Both the position numbers and the translations under genes were made by a program. The notes beneath the pieces are model-generated. The model saw only the letters and a list, made by a program, of their open reading frames with translations, was not told where the DNA came from and searched no databases. DNA of 20,000 bases, taken from an uncultured virus (IMG/VR IMGVR_UViG_3300047157_000140) (Duplodnaviria > Heunggongvirae > Uroviricota > Caudoviricetes > Crassvirales). Location of the stretch: IMG/VR virus record IMGVR_UViG_3300047157_000140. The stretch is one strand, 5' to 3'. Positions 1,169-20,000 of the stretch are shown piece after piece; positions within the stretch are counted from its first letter, which is position 1, and each line of letters begins with the position of its first letter.

Positions 1169-2023
1169 ATGATTAAACCAATGCTCGCATACAAAGTAGA
1201 CAAAAAACCTGTCGACTGGTCCGAGAAAGTATACATTCAACCTAAGCTTGATGGCGTAAGGTGTGTTATATACGTTGACGACAAAGAAAACATTAGATGT
1301 TTCTCACGTACAGGTAAAGAATTTCACAATCTTGAACACATTAAACTATCGTTAAACAAATTTTTCTTTGACTATGCTAATGTAGATGTTGTACTCGACG
1401 GCGAATTATACAACCATGATCTTAAAGATGACTTCGAAAAGATTATATCATTAGTTAGAAAACAAAAACCAACTGATGCTGATAAAGCTGAAGCTGAAAG
1501 GTTAATACAATTTCACTGCTATGACTATATAGAAACAGTTATGGACAAACCTTATAGTTACAGGTCTGATCAACTAGCTTGTTCTGATATGTATAACTAC
1601 TGTATTAAATACGTAGAAACTACTCTAGTTAATTCTAAAGACTCTGCACAGTTAAGACATCAGTATAATCTAAATAACGGTTACGAAGGTTCTATACTAC
1701 GTCTAGACAAACCCTATCAGCAGAAACGTTCTTATAACTTACAAAAGTTTAAAGACTTTTCAGACACTGAAGCTACAATTGTAGGTTACGAAGCAGGTAA
1801 AGGTAAACGCACGGGCACGCTAGGTAAATTTTTAATGCAAGATGATGACGGTAACAAATTTGGTTGCCCTCCAGGTAAAGGCTACAACTATGAAGATTTA
1901 GCTAATATATTAAATAACATTCATGACTACATAGGTAAGCGAGCTACGTTTACTTATTTCGAACGTACTCAGTACGGTAGTTACAGACATCCATTATTTA
2001 AAACTATTCGTAACTATGAATAA
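1169..2023 (+). CDS. lig: ATP-dependent DNA ligase
   Basis: KPMLA N-terminus, motif I QPKLDGVR, VLDGELY, FHCYD, EGSILR, KRSYNLQKFK, and an OB-fold C-terminus ending YRHPLF. Confidence 0.95.
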   Translation: MIKPMLAYKVDKKPVDWSEKVYIQPKLDGVRCVIYVDDKENIRCFSRTGKEFHNLEHIKLSLNKFFFDYANVDVVLDGELYNHDLKDDFEKIISLVRKQKPTDADKAEAERLIQFHCYDYIETVMDKPYSYRSDQLACSDMYNYCIKYVETTLVNSKDSAQLRHQYNLNNGYEGSILRLDKPYQQKRSYNLQKFKDFSDTEATIVGYEAGKGKRTGTLGKFLMQDDDGNKFGCPPGKGYNYEDLANILNNIHDYIGKRATFTYFERTQYGSYRHPLFKTIRNYE

Positions 2024-2096: not shown

Positions 2097-2194
2097 TATA
2101 CCAATTATACAACGATAACATGATAAGCGAAGAGGTAGTACACTTATTATTAGACGCTCATTATAATAGAGTAAACAAAACTAGATACAGATGA
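2084..2194 (+). CDS. 36 aa hypothetical protein
   Basis: MAKLIYQLYNDNMISEEVVHLLLDAHYNRVNKTRYR*; ATGA overlap with the next gene. Confidence 0.55.
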   Translation: MAKLIYQLYNDNMISEEVVHLLLDAHYNRVNKTRYR

Positions 2195-2715
2195 ATATAT
2201 TTTATTTAGATAAAGATCCAGTAAAAGCTGCGCAAGTACAATATAACAAGCATGTTGTGAAGATGATATTAGAATCAGCCCAAATGCTTTGCACTGCGCA
2301 TCATCATTATGCTGAAGAGGTTGGGTATGACAATAGCTATATACCCTATAAAAAAGCTCATTACAATCACCCATCTACAATATGGACTAGACAAAACAGT
2401 AGGCAATATTACTGGTTATTTCAACATATGTTAGCATTGGGTAATGAGTATACTAAAAGATATGACAAAAAGCATTTAAGTATAACTAAATGTTTTGATG
2501 CTTTAAAAAATTGTCCTGTCGGTATGCCTTTAGGTGGTAAATTTAATCAACCACCACAAGCTATGCCAGATGAATATAAGCGTGATTGTGCTATACACGC
2601 TTACTGGTTGTACTATGTACACGAAAAGAAAAACATAGCGCATCACAAAGAAACATTATATGATACTAAATACATTGAAAATGTTGTTGGTTACAGCAAC
2701 AATATACCATGCTGA
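2191..2715 (+). CDS. Pyrimidine dimer DNA glycosylase / endonuclease V-like protein
   Basis: MNIFYLD..P...A....KHVVKMILESAQML and HPSTIW motifs typical of this family. Confidence 0.8.
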   Translation: MNIFYLDKDPVKAAQVQYNKHVVKMILESAQMLCTAHHHYAEEVGYDNSYIPYKKAHYNHPSTIWTRQNSRQYYWLFQHMLALGNEYTKRYDKKHLSITKCFDALKNCPVGMPLGGKFNQPPQAMPDEYKRDCAIHAYWLYYVHEKKNIAHHKETLYDTKYIENVVGYSNNIPC

Positions 2716-3146: not shown

Positions 3147-3777
3147 CGAAAGAAACATAAAATGGCTAAATGATAGACGCGTGGTTTATAGAAGATTTCC
3201 TATAAGCGATACGCCTACTGTTGAGACAGATAAATACATGTTCTTTGAAGACGGTACTTACGAAAACTATTCTCTATTTAATACTAAAGCTAAGATCACA
3301 ACTTACAAGTCACTGAAGTGGCATATGCTTGTTTTATATTATTTAAACATAGATGGTATAGAAGGTGACATTGTGTCACTTGAAGATGACATGAGATCTA
3401 TATTTAATTTTATAGCAAACAAAGAAAATGGATTTGTAACTTTTTTTATAAAACAAACAGTGTTGAACGACATGATAACAAGTGTCTTTAATCAAGGTGG
3501 TGATATACCTAAGAATAAAATGCGTAAAGTAATATTTAAGGACTATAGCGGTTTAACTCCTGAACAGAAAATGTCAATCGTTGGCAAACTAATAGGAAGA
3601 GCATGCAAAGTAGATCAAGAATCTATTTATCAGACAATGTTAGATTTAAATGACTTCGGTAAGAAAATCACAATTGCTAGAATAGCAGGTCTACTTGATT
3701 GCTCCTCAAGAACAATTTATAGAAACATGAACAAAGAATTAACACATGAAAAAATACTATTAAATGAAGAAGTATAA
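3139..3777 (+). CDS. DNA-binding protein with C-terminal helix-turn-helix
   Basis: C-terminal ITIARIAGLLDCSSRTIYRNM is a typical HTH; N-terminal domain not recognised. Confidence 0.7.
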   Translation: MSHERNIKWLNDRRVVYRRFPISDTPTVETDKYMFFEDGTYENYSLFNTKAKITTYKSLKWHMLVLYYLNIDGIEGDIVSLEDDMRSIFNFIANKENGFVTFFIKQTVLNDMITSVFNQGGDIPKNKMRKVIFKDYSGLTPEQKMSIVGKLIGRACKVDQESIYQTMLDLNDFGKKITIARIAGLLDCSSRTIYRNMNKELTHEKILLNEEV

Positions 3778-4522
3778 CATACAAAACTACATAAGGTATA
3801 AAGAAGATTTAAAATCATCTTTAGCTTTATTAGAAGGTAAAAGCTACAAAGACTGCACAAGAAAAGAATTAATAACTAAATTCTTACCATTAGTAGAAAG
3901 TTTAGCTAGAAAGTTTTCAACAAGTCAACAGGCTTCAGGCGTTCAAAGTATAATGGATTTAATTCAATCAGGATCATCTGGTTTAACTAAAGCTGTAGAT
4001 AGATTAGACTGGGAAACATTAGAAAAATCAGAAGACGTAGAGAAAACATTAAAAAGCTTTTTTAGTAAAAGAATAAAAGGAGCTATAAGAAGATCAATAG
4101 ATATAAATAGAGGTGATATACGTATACCAGAGCACAAGCTTAATGAAATACGAAAAAACTTTGGTAAAGACGAAAAGATGGTTGCTTTGTTTTTTAATTC
4201 TATATTTTTAAGTATAGACGAAAAGCCAAACAATGACGATAACCCTATATATGATATACCTGACAAATCAGAGCCATACAATCAACAGTTATTAAACATA
4301 TACTTAACTGGTTTGCTTAAAAAACATTTAAACGAATTAGAGTATCAAATATTAAGATTAAGTTACGGTTTAGACTGTGATAAACACGCGGCGAAAGATA
4401 TTGCCAAAATACTAAACATACAAGGTAGTAGTTCTTACGTTAGAGTTTCTCAGCTAAAAAAACAAGCTGTAGACAAACTAATATTATCTGTAGATCACTC
4501 GCAAGTGCTTGATTACCTGTAG
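3764..4522 (+). CDS. Phage RNA polymerase sigma-70 family factor
   Basis: Region 2: LPLVESLARKF...DLIQSG..GLTKAVDR...RIKGAIRR...IRIPEH; region 4: LNELEYQILRLSYGL...DIAKILNI...RVSQLKKQAVDKL. Confidence 0.9.
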   Translation: MKKYNIQNYIRYKEDLKSSLALLEGKSYKDCTRKELITKFLPLVESLARKFSTSQQASGVQSIMDLIQSGSSGLTKAVDRLDWETLEKSEDVEKTLKSFFSKRIKGAIRRSIDINRGDIRIPEHKLNEIRKNFGKDEKMVALFFNSIFLSIDEKPNNDDNPIYDIPDKSEPYNQQLLNIYLTGLLKKHLNELEYQILRLSYGLDCDKHAAKDIAKILNIQGSSSYVRVSQLKKQAVDKLILSVDHSQVLDYL

Positions 4523-4584: not shown

Positions 4585-5127
4585 ATGACTATAAACGAAA
4601 AGCTGGCTACAATCCAGACAAAATTTAAATCGAAAAAAAGTAGATTTAATTCCTTTGGCAAATACAACTTCAGATCAGCCGAAGACATTCTCGAAGCAAC
4701 AAAACCCTTTCTATTAGAGTTAGGAGTTACAGTAACAATTAATGAAGAGATCATTAGTGTTGACCCTTTACCTATGATGCAGTCTACTGCTTCTGTAAGT
4801 GATGGTGATAATGCTATACACGCTACTGCTATAGTCGGTGTAGACTTAAATCAAAAAGGTATGAACGTACCTCAACAGTTTGGTTCCGCATCCTCTTATG
4901 CTAAAAAATATGCGTTAGGTAATTTATTCTTAATTGATGACACAGCGGACAGCGATGCTACTAATGATCATGGTAAAAAGAAGTTTGCGCCAAAAACTAA
5001 AACCTCAATAACAGCAGATCAGTTAGCAAAAGCTAAAGACTATGTTAAAGCTGGAGGTAAAATAGAAGCTATAAAAGCTAAATATGCTTTGTCTAAAGAA
5101 GCAGAGCAAGAACTAACAACATTATAG
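4585..5127 (+). CDS. erf: ERF-family single-strand annealing protein
   Basis: NSFGKYNFRSAEDILEA and QQFGSASSYAKKYALGNLFLI, the ERF signature. Confidence 0.9.
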   Translation: MTINEKLATIQTKFKSKKSRFNSFGKYNFRSAEDILEATKPFLLELGVTVTINEEIISVDPLPMMQSTASVSDGDNAIHATAIVGVDLNQKGMNVPQQFGSASSYAKKYALGNLFLIDDTADSDATNDHGKKKFAPKTKTSITADQLAKAKDYVKAGGKIEAIKAKYALSKEAEQELTTL

Positions 5128-5859
5128 ATGAAAAAAGAAGATGTGTTAAAACAATTAGAAAATGACAAGCATTACTACGGTGACTTTGGTAAAAAGTATC
5201 TTAGTAACTCTGACATTTCTACTTTATTAACAAATCCTTTAGCGCTAGGTCAACCATCAAAGCAGATACCTGCATTTTTAGTTGGCGGTTATTTTCATAC
5301 TGCGATACTAGAACCTGAAAAGCTTAAAAACTTTAAAGTTGTAGAATCAACAAGTAGAAACTCTAAAGCGTATAAAGAGATCTCAGGTGGAGAATTATGT
5401 TTATTGCAAAACGAAGTAGATAAGATAGAACTGATGACAGATAAAATGATGTCAAACGAAGTTTGTAGAGATCTTATACGTGGTAGTAACATAGAATATG
5501 AACGACCAGGGATTACAGAGCTTGAAGGCGAGATGTGGAAAGGTAAAGCTGATATTATAAACCATGATGAAAAGCTGATCATTGATTTGAAGACGACAGC
5601 AGACATTACAAAGTTTAAATACTCAGCATCCAAGTATAATTACGACTCACAAGCTTATATTTATAGTAAACTGTTTGGTTATGAAATGTTGTTTATAGTT
5701 ATAGATAAAACAACTCACCAAATAGGTATTGTTTGACTGCTCACCTCAATTTTATGAAAAAGGTGCTGATAAAGTTCAACAAGCGGCAGAACAATATAAA
5801 TTATTTTTTAAAACAGAGGATTTGATCCTCAACAGTTTTTTTTAACTAAAACCCTTTAA
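5128..5859 (+). CDS. PD-(D/E)XK exonuclease (RecE/ExoVIII, DUF3799-like), frameshifted near the 3' end
   Basis: LSNSDI, GGYFHTAILEP, KGKADII, IIDLKTT, YDSQAYIY; continues in shifted frames (FDCSPQFYEKG...QFFLTKTL*) to TAA 5857-5859. Confidence 0.85.
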
Positions 5860-5869
5860 AAACCTAAAT

Positions 5870-6043
5870 ATGGCAAGAAAAAGAACAACAAAAAGATTAT
5901 GTACAGTATCAGGAATAACTACAAGCACAGATAATTTCTATGCTAACCAAACACATGTTAAAGCTGTAGATAACTTAAGAAGAAACTCTGGTGCAACTAA
6001 AGACCAGATAGCAAGAATGTTTAACCAAGTAAACGCATATTAA
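5870..6043 (+). CDS. 57 aa basic hypothetical protein
   Basis: MARKRTTKRLCTVSG...ARMFNQVNAY*; fills the gap, stop is 1 nt before the SSB start. Confidence 0.65.
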   Translation: MARKRTTKRLCTVSGITTSTDNFYANQTHVKAVDNLRRNSGATKDQIARMFNQVNAY

Positions 6044-6044
6044 T

Positions 6045-6359
6045 ATGGCATCAATAATTAAAGCTAGTATTAACCTTAATGAAATACCTAAAGATAAGAT
6101 CTATGTAGGTAAAAAAGGTAAATACTTACCAATTACAATAACCTTGAATGACGAGCTAGATCAGTTTGGTAATCAAGGCCCTGTAGTTGTAGAACAATCA
6201 AAAGAAGAAAGGGAGGCTAAAGTAGCTAAAACTTACCTTGGTAATGTTAAAGTGGTGTGGACAAACGGTGATAACGTAGCCGCAGCACCTAAACAAGACC
6301 AACAAGCTCAAGCGGCACCAGTTGCAGCGGTTGCTCCAGCAGATGATTTACCGTTTTAG
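6045..6359 (+). CDS. Putative single-stranded DNA-binding protein
   Basis: Beta-rich core, Ala/Gln/Pro linker and acidic DDLPF tail; lies between recombinase and primase-helicase. Confidence 0.75.
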   Translation: MASIIKASINLNEIPKDKIYVGKKGKYLPITITLNDELDQFGNQGPVVVEQSKEEREAKVAKTYLGNVKVVWTNGDNVAAAPKQDQQAQAAPVAAVAPADDLPF

Positions 6360-6444
6360 TGGAGTGTGAAATGTGTGGGCAAGGAATGACGCAGGACGAA
6401 TATATGTTCTGGACATTTGCCCTGACTGTAGAGACGGAAATTAA
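6359..6444 (+). CDS. About 28 aa Cys-rich zinc-ribbon micro-protein (one indel assumed)
   Basis: GTG start: ECEMCGQGMTQDEYMF, then shifted frame DICPDCRDGN*; two CxxC pairs. Confidence 0.45.
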
Positions 6445-6462
6445 TTAAATAAAATTAAATCA

Positions 6463-8135
6463 ATGCAGACAACAGAGATCAATGGATTCTTGATTGATGG
6501 TTCAATCAATATGGCCTAGAAGAGAAGACACAGGGTATATGTCCCCTGTGTTCTCACGATAGGAAACCTAAAACCAAAAAGCTTAAATGTGCTAGCTATG
6601 ATTGGGAACGTGGTCTCGGTACCTGTCACAACTGTGACACTAGTTTTCAACTTCATACTTACCAACGTAAAGGTGCTAGCGAAAGAGTCTATGTAAGACC
6701 TGATGCAATAGAGCAGTTTGACGATGTAAGTACGAATGTTGAGACATGGTTTGGTACAAGAGGTATATCAAAGAAAACACTGCAAGACTTACAGGTTACT
6801 GAAGGTCAAGAGTGGATGCCTCAAACTAGTAAGATGGAAAATACCATACAGTTTAATTACTTTATGGGTGATCAACTTATTAATGTTAAATATAGAGACG
6901 GTAGAAAAAACTTCAAGTTATACAAAGGTGCTGAAAAAGTATTTTACAATATTAATAGTATTGTAGGTTATGATGAATGTATAATTGTTGAAGGTGAAAT
7001 GGATGTGTTAGCTTTGCACGAAGCTGGTATTAAAAATGTAATATCAGTACCTAACGGTGCTACACTAAATTCTAACAACCTAGATTATCTTAGATAATTG
7101 TATTGATTATTTTGAAGATAAAGACTAAGGTTATACTTGCAGTTGATGCTGATGAAGCCTGGTCAAGCTTTAAAGCAAGAGTTTATACGTAGACTCGGTG
7201 CTGAGGTTTGTTACACTTGTAGATTTTGATGACTGTAAAGATTCAAATGACTATTTAATTGAACATGGTGCTGATGCCTTACGTTCTGCTATACACGCTG
7301 CAAAGCAAGTACCGCTAGAAGGTGTTAGTACATTATACGATATACGAAGATGAACTTAAAGACTTTGTTAAAAATGGATTTAAACCTGGGTTTCAAGTCG
7401 GGCTTAAAAACTTTGATGAAATATTTTCGACATACACTGGTCAGTTTATTACGGTTACTGGCATCCCTAGTAGTGGTAAGTCTGACTTTGTTGATCAAAT
7501 GTGTGTTGGATATAATACAAACTATGGATGGAAGACTGCATTTGCGTCTCCGGAAAATGCTCCAACATATCTTCACGCACATAAGTTAATGCGTAAGGTT
7601 TGGCAAGGTATGCCTTCACCTAGCAGATATAGATGGTGAACAATGGAATAAGTTGCAGACCACGTAAACGATAATTTCTTTTTCATTGACATGGAAAGAT
7701 ATACTCTTGACCATGTACTACGTAAAGGCGCTGAGCTTGTTAAACGTAAAGGTATTAAATGTTTAGTCATTGATCCTTTTAATAAGGTTAGAGATGTTAA
7801 TTGTAAGACTGAAGATGTTAATAGGTATACAATGGAATATCTAACTAAGATAGAAGTATTTGCTAAAAAGTATGATGTATTAGTATTTATAGTTGCGCAC
7901 CCTACAAAGATGTACAAGGCTCTGATGGTAAAATAGAAGAACCTACAATGTATAATATTAAAGGTGGTGGTGAATGGTACGATGCTAGTTATCATGGTTT
8001 ATTAGTACATAGAGATTATGATGCTAAAACTGTTAAAGCTAAAGTATTAAAAGTTAAGTTTCAAAACCTCGGTGAAAACGGTGCTGAAGCTTTTTTAAAT
8101 GGGAACACAAATCAGGTTGCTTTATACCTTTGATT
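6463..8135 (+). CDS. Twinkle/T7 gp4-like primase-helicase (several frameshifts; 3' end uncertain)
   Basis: Zn domain CPLCSHDRK...GTCHNC; TOPRIM IIVEGEMD and VDADE; Walker A TGIPSSGKS; Walker B LVIDP; VAHPTK; IKGGGEW; KVKFQNLG. Confidence 0.9.
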
Positions 8136-8189
8136 CAAGAGAGTTATGGAGCACTATTTTTAAATATTACAAATACTATTACGAAAAAT

Positions 8190-8831
8190 ATGAAAAAAAC
8201 ATATGATAATGCTAATGAAGCTTACGAAGATCTTCTACACGAAGCAATAACAGAAGGTGTAGATTTCGATGACACAAAAGCTTTATTTAATTGTGGTTTT
8301 ACTATTACAAACCCACAAGATAATTGGATAACAAATAAAGAACGTAAATGGAGTTTAGAATACGCTGAAGCTGAGTGGGCTTGGTATTTGTCTGGTGATC
8401 CTAGTATTGATAAGCTAGGAGAAATATACGGTAAGATACCACCGATATGGGAACGTATGGCAAACAGCGATAGAAAAGTAAACTCTAATTACGGTTATCA
8501 ATGGAAAAGAAATAATCAAATAGATTATGTTGTTGCAAAGTTAAGACAAAACAAAAACACAAGGCACGCTGCTATAAGTATATACGATGCTAAGGAATAT
8601 GAAGATTACAGGAAAGATACACCGTGCACTTATGCTATACAGTTTACTATCGTAGACAATAAACTTTGTATGTCTGTCTATATGCGTTCTAATGACATCT
8701 GGTACGGTTTCTGTAATGATCAATATCAATTTTCATCTTTACAAAAACTAATTGCTGGACGTCTTAATTTAGATACTGGATGGTATTACCATCACGCGCA
8801 CAACATGCATCTATATAACAACAAACTATAA
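8190..8831 (+). CDS. Thymidylate-synthase-fold enzyme, dCMP hydroxymethylase (T4 gp42)-like
   Basis: EYAEAEWAWY, IPPIW, VNSNYG, catalytic PCT, MRSNDIWYGFCND (Asp where ThyA has Asn), HNMHLY; ATG 8190 preferred over TTG 8130. Confidence 0.8.
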   Translation: MKKTYDNANEAYEDLLHEAITEGVDFDDTKALFNCGFTITNPQDNWITNKERKWSLEYAEAEWAWYLSGDPSIDKLGEIYGKIPPIWERMANSDRKVNSNYGYQWKRNNQIDYVVAKLRQNKNTRHAAISIYDAKEYEDYRKDTPCTYAIQFTIVDNKLCMSVYMRSNDIWYGFCNDQYQFSSLQKLIAGRLNLDTGWYYHHAHNMHLYNNKL

Positions 8832-8834
8832 AAT

Positions 8835-9596
8835 ATGTATTATTTATACCACATACCAGGTAAAAAGATTGGCGTAACGCGTAATCTTAAGAACAGAGTT
8901 ACCCTTATACAAGGCTATAAGGAGAATGAGTATGAGGTTCTTGAACAGTCAGAAGATATAGATTATATATCAGACCGTGAAATAGAACTTCAAACGTCTT
9001 ATGGCTATAAAAAAGATATAAAATTATATAAAAACCTATTTAATAAAATGAAAATAAACATAACAGAACAAACCTCAACTTTCCCTTGTCCGGTTAATAA
9101 ACTAAAAGGACAACTTATGGATAACATAGGTTTAACTTGGAAGCATCCAGAGTTCGGTAAGTTTGAAATAACAAAAGAAAACATACCTTGGATAATGGCC
9201 AACGTTAAAACTTCAATGTTTAACAACGATAGAAGCTACATTTATAACAAAGCTTTTTACGAAGCTTACTACAATACAGATCACACACCTGCTAAAACAG
9301 ATGAAAGGTTTGATTTAATAAGAGATTGGGCTGCTACAAGAGGCTTATATGACAAAGGTGATTCAAATACACAATATGTCAAACTACAAGAAGAGGCTGG
9401 TGAGCTTGCTAAAGCATTGCTTAAAGATGATAAACCAGAAATTGTAGATGCTATAGGTGATATAGTTGTAGTACTTACAAACTTAGCACACTTACAGGGA
9501 TATGATATAGAATATTGTATTGATGAAGCTTATAAAGTTATAGCAGCAAGAACAGGTAAAATGATTAACGGAACATTCGTAAAAGATGCAGATTAA
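8835..9596 (+). CDS. Multidomain protein: GIY-YIG-like N-terminus, unknown middle domain, MazG-like NTP pyrophosphohydrolase
   Basis: C-terminal IRDWAATRGL...KLQEEAGEL...DAIGDIVVVL...RTGKMINGTFVK is MazG-like; N-terminal YYLYH...KIGVT...R...REIELQ resembles GIY-YIG. Confidence 0.8.
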   Translation: MYYLYHIPGKKIGVTRNLKNRVTLIQGYKENEYEVLEQSEDIDYISDREIELQTSYGYKKDIKLYKNLFNKMKINITEQTSTFPCPVNKLKGQLMDNIGLTWKHPEFGKFEITKENIPWIMANVKTSMFNNDRSYIYNKAFYEAYYNTDHTPAKTDERFDLIRDWAATRGLYDKGDSNTQYVKLQEEAGELAKALLKDDKPEIVDAIGDIVVVLTNLAHLQGYDIEYCIDEAYKVIAARTGKMINGTFVKDAD

Positions 9597-9873
9597 AACA
9601 CAAGATAAGATAGTACAACAAGTACTAAGGAAGATGGACGAACGTAGTTTAATAGGTCAAAAGAAATATGGAGCTACTATGATGCAAGAAATTGAAGGTC
9701 AAGAAAAAGATCTTAATAGATTTCTTGTTGATGTACAAGAAGAATTAATGGACGCGTTATTATACATTGAAGCAGCTAAAAGATGTTTACAAGATGAGGT
9801 TGAGGAAGTTGCTTATAAAAGATTTACTAGTGACGTAACTAATATAGAGGTCAATGAGGAAGAAACTTTATAA
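9586..9873 (+). CDS. Small all-alpha NTP-pyrophosphatase-like protein
   Basis: R...GQKKYG and QEELMDALLY (EExxD) motifs. Confidence 0.6.
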   Translation: MQIKTQDKIVQQVLRKMDERSLIGQKKYGATMMQEIEGQEKDLNRFLVDVQEELMDALLYIEAAKRCLQDEVEEVAYKRFTSDVTNIEVNEEETL

Positions 9874-10309
9874 ACGCAAAAAGGGTCCAGTACAGTCAAA
9901 GAAAATAACCTATGATGGTATCAACTTTGCTTCTGGGCTCGAGCGTTATATGTATATGGCACTACGTAAAGCTAAGATAACAGCTTTGTATGAAGGCCAA
10001 ACGTTTGAGCTTTCTGAGTCTTTTGATTTTCCTTTTGAAGCATACGAAAGATGTGGTAATGGTAAAGGAGAATATAAAAACAGAGGCAAAAAGAAAATAT
10101 TAAACATTAAATATACACCAGACTTTGTAGGTAAGGGTTTTATAATTGAAACTAAAGGTAGAGCTAATGAATCGTTTCCACTTAGGTGGAAGCTTTTTAA
10201 AAAGTTAATAACAGAAAGACGATTAGGACCACTTACATTATATAAACCACAAAATCATAAAGAATGCGACGAAACAGTAAGGTTAATCCTAGAGAAAGCA
10301 AAAGAGTAG
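9854..10309 (+). CDS. Endonuclease I-like / DUF1064 PD-(D/E)XK nuclease (putative Holliday junction resolvase)
   Basis: DGINFASGLE, YTPDF and IIETKG motifs. Confidence 0.8.
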   Translation: MRKKLYKRKKGPVQSKKITYDGINFASGLERYMYMALRKAKITALYEGQTFELSESFDFPFEAYERCGNGKGEYKNRGKKKILNIKYTPDFVGKGFIIETKGRANESFPLRWKLFKKLITERRLGPLTLYKPQNHKECDETVRLILEKAKE

Positions 10310-10425: not shown

Positions 10426-10565
10426 AAGAAAAGAAAAATTGGAGTTTGTCATTTGGATTTTACCCTGGTATACTGCTAGGTGTTAGATCTTACAATGAAC
10501 CAGAGCAAACCACTCATGTGCTATACATACCTTTTGTAGATATAGCTTTAGAAATATTTCACTAA
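10422..10565 (+). CDS. 47 aa hypothetical protein
   Basis: MKEKKNWSLSFGFYPGILLGVRSY...YIPFVDIALEIFH*; ATGA and TAATG overlaps at its two ends. Confidence 0.65.
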   Translation: MKEKKNWSLSFGFYPGILLGVRSYNEPEQTTHVLYIPFVDIALEIFH

Positions 10566-11524
10566 TGGGTTTGTTTGATGAGCGCATAGCGTACAAACCG
10601 TTTGATTACCCTGAATATTATACTGAGGGTTGGTTAAAACAAGCTCAGGCGTTTTGGTTACACACTGAAATACCTATGCAAAGTGATATTAAAGATTGGA
10701 AAGAAAAATTAGATGAAAAAGAAAAAAACCTTGTCGGGAACATACTTCTTGGATTCGCACAGACGGAATGCGCGGTATCAGACTATTGGACCCAAAAAGT
10801 CGTATCGTGGTTTCCTAAACACGAAATAAGACAAATGGCCATGATGTTTGGCTCACAAGAAACAGTACACGCTGTGGCTTATAGTTATTTAAATGAAACA
10901 TTAAAACTAGAAGATTATGAAGCGTTTTTACACGAACCTGCAACAGCCGATCGTTTTGATAACTTGGTTGCTTATGATGGCGACGACCCTGTGGGTATCG
11001 GAACCTCTCTTGCTATCTTCTCCGCTTTTGCAGAAGGCGTTAGCTTATATAGTGCCTTTGCTGTTCTTTATAGTTTTCAGCTACGCAATTTACTTAAAGG
11101 CATCGGACAACAAATGAAATGGTCCGTGAGAGATGAAAGCTTACATAGTAAAATGGGTTGTCAGTTGTTCAGACATATGTGTGAAGAAAATAAAACACTT
11201 TTAAAAGACTGTGAATCAGACATATATAAAGCAGCTAATACTATGGTTGAATTAGAGGAAAAGTATATAGATAAAATGTTTGAAATGGGTGACATTGAAG
11301 GTATTAAAGCTTACGACTTAAAACAATTTATAAGAAAAAGAGCTAATGAAAAACTTATTGAACTTGGTTACAAAGAAGCTTTCGAGTTTGACGAAAAAGC
11401 AGCTGACAACCTTAGTTGGTTTTATCATCTTACCGGGGGCGTCACTCATACTGATTTCTTCGCTATTAGGCCGACTGACTATAGTAAAGCAAATGAAGGA
11501 GAAGATTTCGAAGACATATGGTAA
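10565..11524 (+). CDS. nrdB: Class I ribonucleotide reductase beta subunit
   Basis: KPFDYP, FW.HTE, metal ligands QTEC, ETVH, AEG, DESLH; Tyr in HAVAY; TDFF and DY in the C-terminal tail. Confidence 0.95.
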   Translation: MGLFDERIAYKPFDYPEYYTEGWLKQAQAFWLHTEIPMQSDIKDWKEKLDEKEKNLVGNILLGFAQTECAVSDYWTQKVVSWFPKHEIRQMAMMFGSQETVHAVAYSYLNETLKLEDYEAFLHEPATADRFDNLVAYDGDDPVGIGTSLAIFSAFAEGVSLYSAFAVLYSFQLRNLLKGIGQQMKWSVRDESLHSKMGCQLFRHMCEENKTLLKDCESDIYKAANTMVELEEKYIDKMFEMGDIEGIKAYDLKQFIRKRANEKLIELGYKEAFEFDEKAADNLSWFYHLTGGVTHTDFFAIRPTDYSKANEGEDFEDIW

Positions 11525-11770
11525 CAAGAAGAAAACTACTTAAGCTTTTAGCTTACACAAATAAGTTAACATCATATCAAAAGTTTCGCATCACGTGTAG
11601 GTTACATGGGTGCGGGTTTTTTGATAGCAGGGCAATGGACATTAGATCCTAGGCTTTTCATGATAGGTTTTATATGTGTTATAGTACAAACATCATCAAG
11701 AAAACAATGGAACTTAGTTGCATTGAATATTAATGGGCTAATAGCTTGGATAACTCATTTTATAAAATAT
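11518..11770 (+). CDS. Small multi-pass membrane protein (about 80 aa), one frameshift near 11587, reads in frame into nrdA as sequenced
   Basis: MVTRRKLLKLLAYTNKLTSYQKF / ASRVGYMGAGFLIAGQW...FMIGFICVIVQ...WNLVALNINGLIAWITHFIK; three hydrophobic segments. Confidence 0.55.
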
Positions 11771-13490
11771 ATGTGGAACAATGAATGGAAAAAAGGTGAA
11801 GACTACCCAAAGTGGGGAGACACCGAAGTATATAAAAAAACAATATCTGGAGGATACTTATATCAAGGAGAAACACCTAAGGAGGCTTATAAAAGAGTCG
11901 CGAAAACGGTTGCTCGTAGATTATATAAGCCAGAAATGGCAGAAACTTTCTTTGAGTATATTTGGAATGGTTGGCTATGCTTGGCTAGTCCGGTACTTAG
12001 TAATACAGGTACTGATCGCGGTTTACCTATTAGCTGTTTTGGTATCGATGTGGCTGATAGTATACAAGACATTGGACAAAAAAACTTAGAGATGATGCTA
12101 CTCGCTAAGCACGGCGGTGGAGTTGGTATCGGTATAAATCAAATAAGACCCGCCGGCGCTAAAATAACAGGAAATGGAACAAGTGATGGAGTTGTGCCGT
12201 TTTGTAAAATATACGATTCAACTATACTTGCCACTAATCAAGGATCTGTCCGAAGAGGAGCTGCATCAGTTAATATCAATATTGAGCATGCCGATTTCGA
12301 AGAGTGGCTTGAAATTAGAGAACCTAAAGGAGACGTCAATCGTCAATCGCTCAACTTACACCAGTGCGCTGTGGTCGGCGATAAGTTCATGCGAAGACTT
12401 GAAGCAGGAGATAAACAAGCTAGAAAAAGATGGAGTAAACTTCTTCAAAAGCGTAAAGCAACTGGAGAACCTTATATCCTATTTAAAGGGAAACACAAAC
12501 AAAAATAACCCAAAGCATACAAAGATAACGGTCTCAAAGTTCATATGACAAACATATGTTCAGAAATAACGTTACACACTGATGAAAATCATAGTTTTGT
12601 ATGTTGTTTATCATCATTAAATTTAGCTAAATATGAAGAATGGAAAGGTACAAACCTTATTTATGACAGTATATGGTTCCTTGATGGAGTCATGGAAGAG
12701 TTTATACAACGAGCTAAAGGCTTACGAGGCTTTGAAAACGCGGTTAGGTCAGCTACGAAAGGAAGAGCGCTTGGCCTTGGGAGTTTTGGGCTGGCACACG
12801 TACTTACAAGAAAAAGGTATCTCGTTCGAAGGTTTACTTGCTCAGTTTGAAACTAGGAAAATTTTTAGTCAAATTAAAATTGAAAGTGAAAGAGCTAGTA
12901 TGGCACTTGCAGAAACTTACGGAGAACCTTTATGGTGTTCTGGAACTGGTATGCGTAATACTCATTTACGTGCTGTTGCTCCTACTGTTTCTAATAGTAA
13001 GCTTAGTGGAAATGTTTCGCCGGGTATAGAACCTTGGGCTGCAAATGTTTTTACAGAACAACAGCTAAAGGTACTTTTATACGTAAAAATCCTACTTAGT
13101 TAAACTATTAAGAAAACTTAAAATAAATAACAATGAAACGTGGGATAAAATACTTGCCGATGGTGGTAGTGTACAAGATCTTGCTGAGCTTGATGATGTT
13201 GTTATGGCACACGACGTCACCCGCAAAGGAGGTATTTAAAACTTTTAAGGAGATTAATCAACTAGAATTAGTTAATCAAGCTGGACTGAGACAGCAGTAT
13301 GTAGATCAGTCAGTTAGTTTGAACTTAGCTTTTCCTAGTGTAGCTACGCCTAAATGGCTTAACAAAGTTCATTTTGAAGCTTGGAAAAAAGGTGTTAAAA
13401 CTTTATATTATACAAGGACTGAATCAGTGCTTACGTGGAGATATTGCTACTCAAGCTATGAATGAAGATTGTTTAGCTTGTGATGGATAA
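11771..13490 (+). CDS. nrdA: Class I ribonucleotide reductase alpha subunit, short form with no ATP cone evident (frameshifted)
   Basis: ASPVLSN, PISCF, GGGVG, RRGA, GEPY, TNICSEI, CCLSSLN, LGLG, APTVSNS, DQSVSLN, KTLYY, C-terminal CLACDG* at 13488-13490; pieces lie in different frames. Confidence 0.93.
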
Positions 13491-15099: not shown

Positions 15100-15519
15100 T
15101 TATTCAAATTTACTTGCTTTGTTTAATTTCGTATTATTGATTCTTGAATTTCTTTTAAATCCTGCAGGTAATTCAAGATCTAAACCAGCTTTAAAAACTG
15201 TTTCTTTTATACCACCTTTAAATATAATAATTGTAGGTGCCATACGAACTCTATATTTCTTTTTTGCAACTGGAGCTTTAGCTATATCAACTCTATAATA
15301 CGTCGCATCTTGTAGTTGTTCCCATTCAGCAAAACAATTAACTTCATTAAACTTAGCCCAAAACTCTACAACAATAGGTATACTATCATCATCACCAAAA
15401 GCATGGTGTCCACTTATTTTATCTTCAAAATTTGATCATCTAATCCAGTATTTATCAGGAACTTCTGATTGGCTATATGATAAAAATGGTATTAATAATA
15501 ATAAAATTAAGTATTTCAT
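15100..15519 (-). CDS. Secreted thioredoxin-fold protein lacking CxxC (frameshifted)
   Basis: Signal MKYLILLLIPFLSYS-Q; IVVEFWAKFNEVNC; YYRVDI; KYRVRMAPTIIIFKGG (cis-Pro loop). Confidence 0.7.
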
Positions 15520-15841
15520 TATCTATTTTTTTGTATCTCGTATAATCTTTCATCTATCTTATCTAGTTGCTCTAATATCATCTTCTACATCTTCTTGAGT
15601 GTCCATATTGTCTGACGAATCAATTCGTCTTTTAATCATATTCTGATTCTATAGATAACAGGTTCAGGTAATTCTTTAGCTAAAGCTATATCTGCTTTAA
15701 ACTAAACCAAACACCAGCTAAAGATATTATAGCCAAATATTACATGCTCCTATTGTTTTTAATGATATACCAAAATCTGGTTTACCATCACCATCTATAT
15801 CTATACCTATTTGATGTATTTTCGTCGATATTCTTTGCCAT
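15519..15841 (-). CDS. Single-TM plus coiled-coil protein with a DIDGDGKPD loop (frameshifted)
   Basis: Pieces: MAKNIDEN, IGIDIDGDGKPDFGISLKTIG, IISLAGVWFS, KADIALAKELPEPV, DTQEDVE, QLDKIDERLYEIQKNR*. Confidence 0.6.
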
Positions 15842-15842
15842 T

Positions 15843-16148
15843 TTATTTCTCTTTTAATTCTTCAATTGTTGCTATAAGTTTTTCTACATCTTTCTGTAGG
15901 TATTCAATTCTTAAATCTTGCTTAGCATCATCAGGTAAAGCACCCATTTCACCTCTAGGCCATTTTATTCTAAACTCATCGTTTAATGTTTGATTATATT
16001 CTAATCTAACAATTATAGAAGCTTCTATGTTACTTATTTTTGCTGTTAAATCAAACCATATACCAGCTACAGATATAATACCTATAATTATACCTATTAA
16101 TGTTTTTATATCAAGTTTTACTTCTGATTTTTCTGATAATTCTTCCAT
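15843..16148 (-). CDS. Single-TM plus coiled-coil membrane protein
   Basis: TM LIGIIIGIISVAGIWF followed by a heptad-rich C-terminus; intact 101 aa ORF. Confidence 0.75.
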   Translation of the reverse strand: MEELSEKSEVKLDIKTLIGIIIGIISVAGIWFDLTAKISNIEASIIVRLEYNQTLNDEFRIKWPRGEMGALPDDAKQDLRIEYLQKDVEKLIATIEELKEK

Positions 16149-17325
16149 TATCTAAAGGTATATTAATCCAAAATTAGTTAAGTATATTTCACTATCCCAA
16201 AACTTAGTATATTCACCTTCAATAAACAAACCTATTGATTTACTAATTTTCCAACCCAACATTAACCAGCTTGATAGTCACTCCATTGTTCTGGTCTAAT
16301 AATTATTTTATTAAACCACCTTTACCCCAGTTGTTTCTGTTAAATAGCTAAAATCTTCATCACCTTGTATATATTTATGGTAAGGTAATATCCAATTACC
16401 ATAAGCATGTAGCCAAAAGTTATTTTTGTAATGGTAAAAGTCAAAACCTACAATAGGTGCAATTTCACCAAAAGGATCTAATCAGCCCAAGCTTCATTGA
16501 TTGTATCTATTCAATAAATCAGGCAATTATTCTGTCTCTAAAATCAGCATCTGTATAAGCAACAATATCTCCTTGTTCATTTTTCCAATACCAATCATAT
16601 GTTTGTTACCAAACTCATCATTTTGTGAATAGTATAAGTCATCATAACCATATTCAAAACCTAAAGAATACCATGGGTTTAGCAGCATACCATTTTCATC
16701 TTGTTCATTTAACCATATTTCTACTGGATTATAACCATAAGGACGTTGATGTGTACGATATATTGCACCAGCAGATATACTAAGTTTCTTACCAATAGGT
16801 AACCTGGCTCTTAATTCACCAGATGTGTATTTAAACCCTACATTACCAGTTTCTCTAGCTTCAAATTTTAGCTATGTGATATTTACCTGTGTGTCTTATA
16901 AATAATCTTTTATTTTAAATTCATCACCATTCATCTTTCTTTTTCCCAATGTAACAAATATTCTAAACCTTTACAGCTGATGTAGGTGCTGATAAACCTA
17001 TTTGTTTTTCTTCGGTACCACCTGTAAAAAGTTACCTGGTTTTACTTTCGTAATCAAACCTAGCTAGCTTACGTATACCAAAACCATATCTATAATCAAA
17101 GGGTGATAGTACTGCTCTGATCTATCTACCTCTGGTATACCATAAAAATCTTGTGGATCTGTACGTATAAAATACTTTGGCACTTCAGATTTAGCGTTTT
17201 CTATATTACCAGCCGCGTATAGAACTGTACCGTATTTTAAGAAATCATTGTATAATTCTTTAAAAAATTGTGCATTAGCATTGCTGCTTAATAGCATAAT
17301 TAGTATAAATTAGCAAATGTCTCAT
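16148..17325 (-). CDS. Secreted protein of about 390 aa, probable outer-membrane beta-barrel (many frameshifts)
   Basis: Signal ending SSNANA-QFF; amphipathic strands YRYGFGIRK, ELRARLPIGKKLSISAGAIYR, IVGFDFYHY, WLHAYGNW, GWKISKSIGLFIEGEY; ends FG..YTFR*. Confidence 0.6.
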
Positions 17326-17369
17326 ATGTTAAGTCTTATTTATAGTTAAGTATCACTTGTTTTTATTTT

Positions 17370-20000
17370 TCTTAATTTTTTTATTCTTGAAGGTGCTTTT
17401 TTTCTTTTTTACCTTTAAGTTTTTTATTTAGAATTAGCAGATCTTGATTCTTCATATGGGTTAACTCCTACATCCCAAGTACTCCAACCTAATAGACATA
17501 GCTATTCTTTGCCAAGCAGCATTTGCTCTATCCATAGCTTCTTTTAAATTATTTATAATCATACAGCTCTATCTAACGGTACGTTAGTTGTAGCTGATAC
17601 AACATTACCTATAGCTAATAAGAAGGATTATCTAATCCAAAACCATTATTTTCTATTTTTTTTGTTAAACTTGTATGTTTGAAAGCACTATATAATTTTC
17701 TTAGTTTACTACCAACTGGTGGAGATATGTTAGCCGCTCTATCATAGTATAAGTATGATCAGCTGACCTTTTATTTTCTTGTTCTAAAAACTTCATTATA
17801 ATATTTTTACCTGTAGAAGCAACCAGCACCATATATACCAGAACCTCTTAACATAGTATCAGCCATGTTATTTATTTGCTGTTCTTTTTTTCTTATTTCA
17901 AATCTTCTTCATCTTCACCACCAAACAACAACCAAACATAGCGTTTTGTAACCTGTAAACATAAATTTTGTATTGCCCCATAGTAAGCTATTTTAGATAC
18001 ATTAGTTTTCCAATCACCTCTACCGTTTTTAATATCTAAATGCTTTTTAGTTAATCTCTAGTATACTGCATTGGTGTATTTTGAAAAGCTAATATTAATC
18101 TACCTAATGGACCTGCTTGTTGTTGTGATATTCATATCAGGTCTTGCTGACTGCTGTGCTTTTTCTGAAGCCTCTCAGCAAAATCTTCAAAAGCTTTTTT
18201 TCAGCTTCTTTTCAGATAAACCTTCTTTTAAATAAGTGTTTAATTCTATTTCTATAAAAGTAGCACCACCAGAAGCTATAGCAAAACTATCAGCTATTTG
18301 AGTAGGTGTAAAACCTTTTTTAATAAATAAGCTATAGCTGCATGCGCTTTGTTTTTAGAGTTAGCAACAGCACTAGCTATTTCAGCTTCGTTTACATCAC
18401 TTTGTAACCTGATCTTCTTTGCTTTAAAGTGGTGAATTAAATATCATAGCTAAAATCTTTCCAATATTGTGGTTGATTAGCAAAAGCTTTACCGGCTTTT
18501 AATGGGTTGTTGTCACTCCAGTTTATAAAGTTATACTAGATATTGTTTGTAAGTAAAGCTGATCTCATATTAAAGAACATTATAGCACCAACAGAGTTGT
18601 TAACCCAATTCATAAAACCGTTGACCAATCTGTTCTGTACCAAAGTTTCTATTAGTACCGTTTTCCATACGATATAATATATCTTCTAAAGCTTCTCTGA
18701 ATCTAGTACCATATATAGCTTCTATTTTATTCATATTCTTCTTACTGAATATAACATTTTTATTTTCTATCCAGTCTTTTAAATATCTAGTTTTCTACTT
18801 ACTGTATTGCTTACATCGTTCATAGGTCGCTAGATTATATTACCAGCTAACCCAGTTTTCAGTAGGTTTTGGATAACCTTGATTTAATTTTAGTTATTAG
18901 ATACTTTATCAGCAAACTCTTTTAAAGTCTAATATCTTTATTAACTATTTTCTTTAATTCTTTTGATCTGTTTTAGATATACCAGGAATAGTTGTAACCA
19001 TTTTTATCCCATAAATAAACTCTTATAGCTTGATCATATGTAAAGTTATTATAATTAGTTTTCTTACCTAATAGCTTTTTACATCTTTGTTATTTTTACG
19101 CAAAGCCCTAAATCATTAGCCATAGTTTGCTTAGCATTGTTTATATCTCTGTAAGCCTAGCAAATGGTTTTAACTAAATTTTTCATTAAAAACTCCATTT
19201 GTTTATCACCTTTTTACCTTTACCTAAAAAAGAATATATTAAACCTACAAAGTCTTCAGCTGATGGTGGTAAAAAAACTTATATTTATCTTTAGCACCCT
19301 TTGCTTCTAGCAGCTGCATCAGAATATGTTTTAAAGCTTCAACACCTGTTGTTTCTTCTATTATGTCATTAAAATCTTTACTCTAGTGCTTTAAACTAGA
19401 TTTAGCTATAGCTTGTTGAACTTTACTTAACATCTATAACATTTAAAACATCTTAACAGCTTTAACATTTTTATACGCGTCATCAGCAAAATAAAAATCA
19501 TTATAACCTTCTAGCAGCTTTACCTAATACCCAATCAGCTTTAGCTTGTGGTGTACCATCTTCTAAACCAGTTATATTTTCTATAGGTATATCTAAACCT
19601 AAACCTTTTAAAAAGCTTTTGTATTGCTGGTGCTGACGCTTGTGGTCTAGCTGTTAATATAAATATATCTTTGTTACCAAACTTTCTTGTCTTTTTGTGC
19701 AAGTTCAAACAATGGTCCTTTTTTACCATCAATAACTTCATTAAATTCACTAAAATCAAACTCAGTAACGCACCAGCAGCTTCAAGGTCTGCTGACTGTA
19801 AAGCAAACTCAGTAGCATTTATTTTATAGTGCTACCATCAGGCATAGTAACACCTAACTTTGACTATTTGTTTTAGCAAGTGTATCATCAAAGTCAAAAA
19901 CACTAATACCTTTTTTCTATTTATATCTTTAGTATTCTGAAATAATGAAAAACGAAAAACATTTCTTTTACCGTTACTCTTGAACTCTGGTATAGCCGTT
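17370..20000 (-). CDS. Giant protein, C-terminal part (5' partial, heavily frameshifted), putative virion/ejected protein with an internal HAD domain
   Basis: Protein-like pieces run continuously: VFDFDDTL, ILTARP, FADD, PPSAEDFVGLIY, WVNNSVGAIMFFN, GFTPTQIADSFAIASGGATFY, SQQQAGPLGRLILAFQNTPMQY, GWSTWDVG; stop position approximate. Confidence 0.7.

Follow-up and report, generated by a model that had tools for sequence, protein, structure and literature searches.

A probable deoxycytidylate hydroxymethylase labelled as thymidylate synthase, and its MazG-domain neighbour, in a marine podophage lineage

The DNA considered here, called the window below, is a stretch of 20,000 nucleotides (nt) from an uncultured virus of the Crassvirales (IMG/VR IMGVR_UViG_3300047157_000140) with a G+C content of 33%. 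The piece under study, positions 8190-9873, holds three adjacent genes: a short protein with the thymidylate synthase (TS) fold, a protein with a C-terminal MazG domain, and a small conserved open reading frame (ORF). Judged from its sequence, the product of 8190-8831 can with good confidence be assigned as a deoxycytidine monophosphate (dCMP) hydroxymethylase-type enzyme that has been mislabelled as thymidylate synthase. The three genes, with the motifs and domains referred to below, are as follows.

8190..8831, plus strand: TS-fold gene, intact, 213 residues, a short form ending just past an H-x-Y motif (PF00303)
8484..8492, plus strand: S99-N-Y101, the Ser-x-Tyr pair corresponding to T4 Ser94/Tyr96 (alignment)
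8616..8627, plus strand: D143-T-P-C146, the catalytic Cys with an Asp three residues before it (alignment)
8685..8720, plus strand: motif R166-S-N-D-I-W-Y-G-F-C-N-D177 (HMMER and MAFFT alignments)
8835..9596, plus strand: three-domain protein of 253 residues with a C-terminal MazG domain (Pfam, AlphaFold2 model)
About residues 1-60 of the 253-residue protein: N-terminal T5orf172/GIY-YIG-like domain
About residues 70-145 of the 253-residue protein: conserved middle domain
9300..9593, plus strand: MazG domain, about residues 156-253 of the 253-residue protein (family alignment A2 and fold matches)
9586..9873, plus strand: ORF of 95 residues, conserved and helical, with an 11-nt overlap with the preceding gene (phrog_11184, phrog_17558)

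Diagnostic residues of the TS-fold protein

The 213-residue protein matches the Pfam family Thymidylat_synt (PF00303) with an E-value of 7.4e-26 and 91.3 bits (cut-off 24.3), the match spanning only positions 25-214 of the 266 in the profile. Its best sequence matches in the PDB are the cytidine monophosphate (CMP) hydroxymethylase MilA (1.9e-18) and the T4 dCMP hydroxymethylase, or dCH (2.8e-17). E. coli ThyA appears in the same search at about 2.5e-12, behind both cytosine hydroxymethylases.

Markers for enzymes of this type are proposed in PMC6400193 from the T4 ternary complex and from mutants. In that account Asp179 selects cytosine, and hydroxymethylases are marked by an acidic residue (Asp or Glu) at the third position ahead of the catalytic Cys, which activates water; the TS enzymes have Leu in this place. 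A Ser or Thr two residues before a conserved Tyr is proposed there as a further marker, and the dCMP hydroxymethylase is said to be without the C-terminal tail of TS, with which ThyA closes its active site for the transfer of hydride. In the window protein, Asp177 (the last Asp of GFCND) aligns with T4 gp42 Asp179 (GFRND) and with E. coli ThyA Asn177, both by HMMER and by MAFFT. Asp143 is the counterpart of the water activator T4 Asp145, where ThyA has Leu143, and Cys146 (T4 Cys148, ThyA Cys146) occupies an invariant alignment column. Positions 99, 143 and 177 read Ser/Asp/Asp in the window protein and T4 gp42, Ala/Asp/Asn in SPO1 gp29 and Ag3 orf66, and Pro/Leu/Asn in E. coli ThyA. The ThyA tail is absent, the protein stopping four residues past Tyr209, and the C-terminal 50 residues of ThyA are missing. 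Opposite MilA Lys133 and Ala176 (alignment to 5jnh) the protein has Arg125 and Ser167, which are deoxy-type residues; MilA is reported to be switched from CMP to dCMP by K133R and A176S. These residues place the enzyme among the cytosine-specific ones and argue against a thymidylate synthase. Since Asp143 and Ser99-x-Tyr101 fit the dCH signature in the literature, hydroxymethylation is more likely than methylation.

Much of this had been anticipated in an initial annotation of the window. The motif R-S-N-D-I-W-Y-G-F-C-N-D at 8685-8720, and IPPIW and VNSNYG along with it, are all present as it had described them, in an intact 213-residue ORF. The alignments uphold its placing of an Asp at the position of ThyA Asn177 and T4 Asp179, and the gp42 motifs that it gave match the T4 record and the PDB alignments. 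It had predicted that automatic annotation would call the gene thyA, and the PHROG match is indeed 'thymidylate synthase', the name that JGI also gives to the relatives. Its view that the enzyme more likely makes 5-hydroxymethyl-dCMP (5hm-dCMP) or 5-methyl-dCMP than acts as ThyA agrees with the cytosine-type residues, which would favour hydroxymethylation of the two.

Conservation was examined in 201 sequences, 189 of them distinct (the window protein, 80 IMG/VR loci and 120 database proteins). E62, S99, Y101, D143, C146 and D177 are kept in 201 of 201, and the 120 database proteins are 213-223 residues long. A wider comparison was drawn from an exhaustive HMMER search, which gave 7662 matches at E <= 0.001. 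The resulting alignment has 135 rows, made up of 11 references and 124 of the best 150 matches, the other 26 having been dropped as shorter than 190 residues. Ser/Asp/Asp is found in 84 of the 135 rows and Gly/Asp/Asp in 44; the ThyA-type Pro/Leu/Asn occurs in the E. coli reference only. A tree of 213 core columns was built with FastTree (Shimodaira-Hasegawa-like, or SH-like, local support, without bootstraps). In it the window protein falls, together with T4 gp42, in a group of 63 Ser/Asp/Asp rows (SH-like support 97), and both hydroxymethylases of deoxyuridine monophosphate (dUMP) as well as ThyA fall outside that group. The phylogenetic check suggested in the initial annotation thus groups the window protein with T4 gp42, apart from ThyA and the SPO1 dUMP hydroxymethylase.

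The likeness to T4 gp42 (PDB 1b49, 1b5e, 6a9a) extends over the TS fold, the catalytic Cys, Glu62 (T4 Glu60), the absence of the ThyA tail, the Ser-x-Tyr pair, the Asp three residues before the Cys, the Asp at 179/177 and the local motif MRSND..GF.ND. MilA, a Streptomyces CMP 5-hydroxymethylase (PDB 5b6d, 5jnh) and the top PDB match, likewise has Asp at the selectivity position. It differs in having an extra C-terminal domain (325 residues) and in Lys133 and Ala176, which favour the ribonucleotide, where the window protein has the arginine and serine named above. The closest cultured relative is gene 00032 of Bacteroides phage BF486P2 ('deoxycytidylate 5-hydroxymethyltransferase', an annotation that appears to be automatic), 44.7% identical over the full length and with the same Ser/Asp/Asp pattern and GFCND motif. 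Its surroundings differ, for within 9 kb there is no homologue of the window MazG protein or of the 95-residue ORF.

Two other phage loci were noted in passing. BF486P2 has two TS-like genes (6168-6929 and 9001-9681), both with Asp at 177 and flanking a dUTPase; the second of them has diverged strongly and sits on a long tree branch. In Enterococcus phage VPE25 (L096, 2992-5350) an Asp-type TS homologue of 281 residues, 36% identical, lies beside a dUTPase. It also adjoins a gene annotated as beta-glucosyltransferase, which suggests that the Enterococcus phage group of VPE25 has DNA of the glucosyl-hydroxymethylcytosine type.

The MazG-domain protein and the 95-residue ORF

The 253-residue protein was analysed through the family alignment A2 of 31 sequences and an AlphaFold2 model with a mean pLDDT (predicted local distance difference test) of 84.8, with block values of 84-97 over residues 161-240. 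Its C-terminal domain is a true MazG-type nucleoside triphosphate (NTP) pyrophosphohydrolase. Residues 172-234 match the Pfam families PRA-PH (PF01503, 28.7 bits, cut-off 21.3) and MazG (PF03819, 23.9 bits, cut-off 22), and both families are matched by 31 of 31 members. A PDB profile search finds 1vmg at 1.1e-07, and model residues 155-253 give VIA Z values of 9.4-9.5 to 7ody (S-2L MazZ), 2yxh, 1vmg and 1yvw; Foldseek gives the MazG-like fold a probability of 1.00 but an E-value of only 0.01. The MazG-family motif consists of acidic metal-binding residues on helices. E186, E187, E190, D205 and D209 are invariant in the 31 sequences, and the fold and acidic motif are those of S-2L MazZ (7ody) and Sulfolobus 1vmg.

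The conserved middle domain has no Pfam or PDB sequence match. Together with the MazG part it shows about 35% identity to proteins of Streptococcus thermophilus phages that are annotated as 'DNA-binding', such as ORF19/20 of O1205. Unlike these various MazG proteins, the window domain is fused to a T5orf172/GIY-YIG-like domain and always stands beside the putative hydroxymethylase gene.

Signals for the N-terminal domain are weak. Of the 31 members, 4 match PF10544 (best E 0.0034) and 3 match PF13455 (MUG113); in the closest Atlas clusters that have a name, at scores of 0.96-0.97, T5orf172 is found on 14-18% of the members. The T5orf172 and MUG113 families both belong to the GIY-YIG clan, of which a beta-beta-alpha-beta-alpha core and conserved Tyr, Arg and Glu are expected. 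The model has the order beta-beta-alpha-beta-alpha (strands 2-7, 11-15 and 34-39; helices 18-25 and 42-55), and Y5, K11, R21 and E49 are invariant in the 31 sequences. A PDB profile search with the domain and an hhalign comparison with T4 SegA gave no match, and the match lists of fold searches with the full 253-residue model are filled by the MazG domain. Membership of the GIY-YIG superfamily, in its T5orf172 branch, is a lead, not a result.

Variants of the gene occur among the relatives. In one (L078:4166-4477) a stand-alone MazG protein of 104 residues, without the N-terminal and middle domains, follows the TS gene; another (L043:1765-2766) has a version of 334 residues with a long insert ahead of the MazG domain. 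From these two forms the domains can be regarded as separable.

The 95-residue ORF carries an EELMD motif, and its invariant residues include R20, K27, Y28, G29, E52, E53 and D56. It matches phrog_11184 and phrog_17558 only, both of them PHROGs that have no assigned function. No Pfam NTP pyrophosphatase match was found at E up to 1 in 29 members of the family, and a PDB profile search returned chance matches only (E 1.4 or worse). Comparison with the neighbouring MazG family by hhalign gave a probability of 0.75%, and BLASTP against T4 gp56 gave E 0.072, for a single pair and a short stretch. The AlphaFold2 model is a two-helix hairpin of low confidence (pLDDT 64.5). The initial annotation had taken both neighbours of the TS-fold gene for NTP pyrophosphatase-like genes. 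The first has a genuine MazG domain; for the second, the EExxD protein, the idea finds no support in Pfam, the PDB profiles, hhalign or the gp56 comparison.

Other ways of reading the junction between the first two genes were considered and set aside. One was read-through or fusion: in the window the two ORFs share a reading frame, with only TAA and one codon between them (8829-8837). In relatives (e.g., L020 and L004) the offset is not a multiple of three, so the shared frame is a coincidence. A longer TS gene split by an intron or homing endonuclease was also rejected. There is no C-terminal TS segment downstream, the short length is common to all 120 database proteins, and the GIY-like domain at the N-terminus of the following gene is a constant feature (74 of 77 loci), not a sporadic one.

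Gene order, relatives and quality of the record

The window is a replication and nucleotide module of the phage. Around the three genes the following features were identified.

1169..2023, plus strand: ATP-dependent DNA ligase (Pfam PF01068 and PF14743)
2191..2715, plus strand: PHROG-624/Pyr_excise-like protein, 174 residues (phrog_624, Pfam)
3764..4522, plus strand: sigma-like factor
4585..5127, plus strand: Erf
5128..5736, plus strand: PDDEXK exonuclease
6498..8133, plus strand: primase-helicase, broken by stops and single-base indels; a single 571-residue ORF in the complete relative G001
9854..10309, plus strand: DUF1064/resolvase-like protein (PF06356, E 9.9e-09; phrog_190)
10565..11524, plus strand: ribonucleotide reductase (RNR) small subunit, intact (PF00268, E 2e-59)
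11606..13465, plus strand: RNR large subunit, broken by one in-frame stop and frameshifts; a 572-residue ORF in G001
Downstream of the RNR genes, minus strand: further genes, an M15 endolysin among them

The 174-residue protein at 2191-2715 matches phrog_624 strongly (9.5e-48, label 'DNA binding protein'), and its score for the pyrimidine-dimer DNA glycosylase Pfam family, 23.9 bits, is barely at the cut-off of 23. Scans of the window for tRNAs and with Rfam gave no match, nor did a megablast search of the whole window against GenBank phages.

A relative of the TS-fold protein is encoded in 427 of 428 candidate stretches in IMG/VR, at 71-84% identity and on contigs of up to about 70 kb. Synteny was followed in 80 loci fetched from these relatives, of which 77, on marine viral contigs, have room for neighbours. 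The MazG gene comes directly after the TS gene in all 77 (in 74 as one full-length match), and the 95-residue ORF and DUF1064 are each present in 76. Five complete relatives have one match each to PF00303 and PF01503. The fold and diagnostic residues of the TS-fold protein, their conservation, the synteny and the fold of the MazG domain are direct observations.

G001 is a relative of 68,886 bp with terminal repeats, to which the window aligns end to end at 76-89% nucleotide identity. It encodes a terminase, a portal, a crAss-like capsid (a weak match), the C-terminal domain of a crAss muzzle protein, proteins of 2372 and 1470 residues, and a tail fibre of at least 1730 residues. The complete relatives carry GroEL, GroES and thioredoxin, and G001 has ribonucleotide reductase as well. 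Primase-helicase, ligase, Erf and exonuclease are also present in the complete relatives, in which no DNA polymerase was detected. For the terminase, the closest matches, at 44% identity, come from phages of Flavobacterium, Cellulophaga, Tenacibaculum and Maribacter; this closeness to phages of Flavobacteriia supports a host among the Bacteroidota and agrees with the description of the virus as a non-T4 Bacteroidota phage. The lineage comprises podophages of roughly 65 kb that are frequent in seawater and have relatives among the phages of Flavobacteriia.

DNA nearly identical to positions 6300-10300 (55-74% of sampled 31-mers) was found in 17 seawater, estuary and viral metagenome runs. The same region, whole or in part, was seen in 20 runs from 10 studies dated 2016-2025, and the genotype is widespread. 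A literature search found no paper on this lineage, on Bacteroides phage BF486P2, on a Cellulophaga or Flavobacteriia hydroxymethylase, or on a marine MazG together with dCMP hydroxymethylase.

Three coding regions of the window are broken: the genes of the primase-helicase and of the large RNR subunit, and a stretch with homology to the 2372-residue gene of G001. Relative to G001, indels that are not multiples of three (mostly single bases) form two clusters, with 20 of them between 6 and 8 kb and 119 between 15 and 20 kb, and 3-5 kb and 10-11 kb are free of them. For the indels of 6000-8133 and the one at 11584, the window was compared with public short-read contigs of four runs, each from a different study. 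They are without the window's extra bases at 7090, 7123, 7157, 7346, 7625 and 11584, the last, just upstream of the large RNR gene, being the only indel of the RNR region among the differences listed, and they have bases that are missing from the window near 6499, 7651 and 8091. Because the public contigs differ at those indels, the breaks are most likely assembly errors of the record, and the clustering of the indels suggests unevenness in assembly or polishing more than genes in decay. The same runs are identical to the window over 8129-8618, 8387-8693, 8965-9527 and 9102-9485, so the three genes of 8190-9873 can be taken as sound.

An alternative genetic code was considered for the broken genes. 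Reading TAG, TGA or TAA as sense restores no long ORFs at 15-20 kb, and the breaks are single-base indels, on which grounds the idea was rejected. At 15300-20000 on the minus strand there is no ORF of more than 60 residues under any reassignment of stop codons, and the segment is 76% identical to part of the single 2372-residue ORF of G001. That ORF has no Pfam or PHROG match; it might encode a crAss-like virion protein.

Proposed function and its alternatives

The gene at 8190-8831 probably encodes a short gp42-like dCMP hydroxymethylase, with the MazG neighbour plausibly feeding it and the phage DNA probably containing 5-hydroxymethylcytosine (5hmC) or a derivative. In the proposed mechanism Cys146 would attack C6 of dCMP, Asp177 would select and protonate the cytosine, and methylene-tetrahydrofolate would donate the one-carbon unit. 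With Asp143, the Ser99-x-Tyr101 pair and no ThyA C-terminal lid, water rather than hydride would be added, giving 5-hydroxymethyl-dCMP. The MazG-domain protein would hydrolyse deoxycytidine triphosphate (dCTP) or other deoxynucleoside triphosphates (dNTPs) to monophosphates, which would both feed the hydroxymethylase and deplete dCTP; 5hmC or a derivative in the phage DNA would protect it against restriction. From the sequences and the gene order we infer the product of the enzyme, the substrate of the MazG domain, incorporation into DNA and the enzymes that would phosphorylate and polymerise the nucleotide.

A published screen is relevant to the class of gene. In PMC8670742 (MetaGPA) cytosine-modified phage DNA from sewage and coastal water was selected enzymatically. 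As reported there, PF00303 was the domain most strongly associated with modified contigs, among residues position 177 discriminated best, the modified contigs having Asp there, PF00303 co-occurred with PF01503, and the ligase domains PF01068 and PF14743 were associated with cytosine-modified contigs. PF00303, PF01503, PF01068 and PF14743 are all present in the window, which thus resembles the MetaGPA contigs in Asp177, in the co-occurrence with PF01503 and in both ligase domains. It differs from them in that no carbamoyltransferase was found in the Pfam scan of G001 and dCMP deaminase in none of five complete relatives. The screen lends support to genes of this class in general and none to this particular genome. 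The principle that Asp177 marks cytosine-modifying TS homologues, enriched on modified virome DNA, is already published there, and with it the idea behind the initial annotation in its general form.

Several observations weigh against the proposal. Overall identity of the TS-fold protein is 27% to T4 gp42, SPO1 gp29 and E. coli ThyA alike and is non-discriminating, so the identification rests on the diagnostic residues. The T4 enzyme is longer (246 versus 213 residues), and several of its contacts to the folate cofactor, K28, R177 and R220, are not kept, being replaced by F25, C175 and N211; the window protein is related to gp42 without being a near copy of it. In the quick tree, with local support only, T4 gp42 is on a long branch flagged as unsure, and for this reason and because there are no bootstraps the tree is consistent, not decisive, evidence. 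The 253-residue protein has no significant similarity to T4 gp56 (BLASTP E 0.017, a single pair, short stretches). No TS-like gene is annotated in 10.7 kb around the match in Streptococcus phage O1205, and BFVD has fold and sequence matches to the protein in Staphylococcus, Lactobacillus and Brochothrix phages. Because of the gp56 result and the O1205 locus, we only infer dCTP removal, from the position of the gene. The earlier suggestion that a MazG-like protein could remove dCTP as gp56 does is partly supported: the MazG domain is genuine, and no significant likeness to gp56 was seen.

The enzymes that would act after the hydroxymethylase weigh on the same side. In T4 the hydroxymethylase gene is accompanied by a deoxynucleoside monophosphate (dNMP) kinase, glucosyltransferases, a polymerase belonging to the phage and a dCTPase from a different family; no counterpart of these was found here. 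Scans of the G001 ORFs with PHROGs and/or Pfam detected no DNA polymerase, dNMP kinase, glycosyltransferase or deaminase, and no dUTPase or ThyX match either; the thymidylate kinase, dCMP deaminase, DNA pol A and DNA pol B families are found in 0 of 5 complete relatives. The only strict Walker A motif in G001 plausibly placed for an NTPase is that of the helicase, and no other plausible P-loop kinase motif was seen. A kinase could be hidden among the G001 ORFs that lack an assigned function, about half of the total. The initial annotation had seen no dNMP kinase, glycosyltransferase or DNA polymerase in the window, as the Pfam and PHROG scans of the window agree, and the search it proposed for the rest of the genome, carried out on complete relatives, found no kinase, and no glycosyltransferase in G001.

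An ordinary thymidylate synthase, the reading of automatic annotation, has behind it the PF00303 and PHROG matches and the JGI name of the relatives, and is extremely unlikely in view of Asp177, Asp143, the 50 missing C-terminal residues and the restriction of the Pro/Leu/Asn pattern to the E. coli reference among 135 rows. A dUMP hydroxymethylase making 5hm-dUMP, like SPO1 gp29 or the ViI-type enzymes, would account for the short TS core and Asp143, common to these enzymes, and for an identity to Ag3 orf66 (32-33%) above that to T4 gp42. SPO1 gp29 and Ag3 orf66, however, have Asn at 177 and Ala instead of Ser99, and they lie outside the clade of the window protein, so that this activity is very improbable. 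A dCMP methylase would make 5-methyl-dCMP, as reported for phage XP12 and the engineered ThyA N177D, and the DNA would contain 5-methylcytosine. According to work cited in PMC8670742, Asp177 alone turns ThyA into a dCMP methylase, and no glycosyltransferase or other enzyme decorating hydroxymethylcytosine was found in G001. We nevertheless regard a methylase as unlikely: in the comparison with T4 gp42, SPO1 gp29, Ag3 orf66 and E. coli ThyA, Asp143 and Ser99-x-Tyr101 fit the hydroxymethylase signature, ThyA having Leu at 143, and the protein is without a C-terminal tail to close the active site for the transfer of hydride as in ThyA.

It is also conceivable that the enzyme is a cytosine hydroxymethylase in a phage whose cytosine is not wholly replaced, with partial modification or manipulation of the nucleotide pool as the outcome. 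The lack of a detected phage dNMP kinase, DNA polymerase or glycosyltransferase in the complete relatives would fit such a case, as T4 requires its own kinase for hm-dCMP. Yet the catalytic residues are kept in 201 of 201 sequences, the place of the gene in the replication module is fixed, and a kinase could be concealed among the unassigned half of the G001 ORFs. Asp177-type TS genes are, moreover, reported as enriched on contigs that survive a selection for full cytosine modification (PMC8670742). Partial replacement is accordingly rather doubtful.

The hydroxymethylase proposal has a bolder form, in which a globally common lineage of marine Flavobacteriia podophages would replace cytosine with 5hmC by means of a 213-residue hydroxymethylase and a nuclease-MazG fusion, with no kinase or polymerase of its own. 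In such a minimal module the fusion of a GIY-YIG/T5orf172 nuclease with a MazG dNTPase would combine the roles of T4 EndoII and gp56. With no dNMP kinase or DNA polymerase encoded by the phage, host kinases and the host replicase would then need to accept the modified nucleotide. This form is put forward tentatively and is rather unlikely to hold.

Relatives of the TS-fold gene carry the public label 'thymidylate synthase'. If the DNA has modified cytosine, readouts of marine viromes that are based on restriction, bisulfite, APOBEC or nanopores would be affected. Should the proposal prove true, hm-dCMP would be phosphorylated and polymerised in these phages without dedicated enzymes of the T4 type, which raises the question of how far host enzymes tolerate the modified nucleotide, and marine Flavobacteriia would face an anti-restriction strategy like that of T4.

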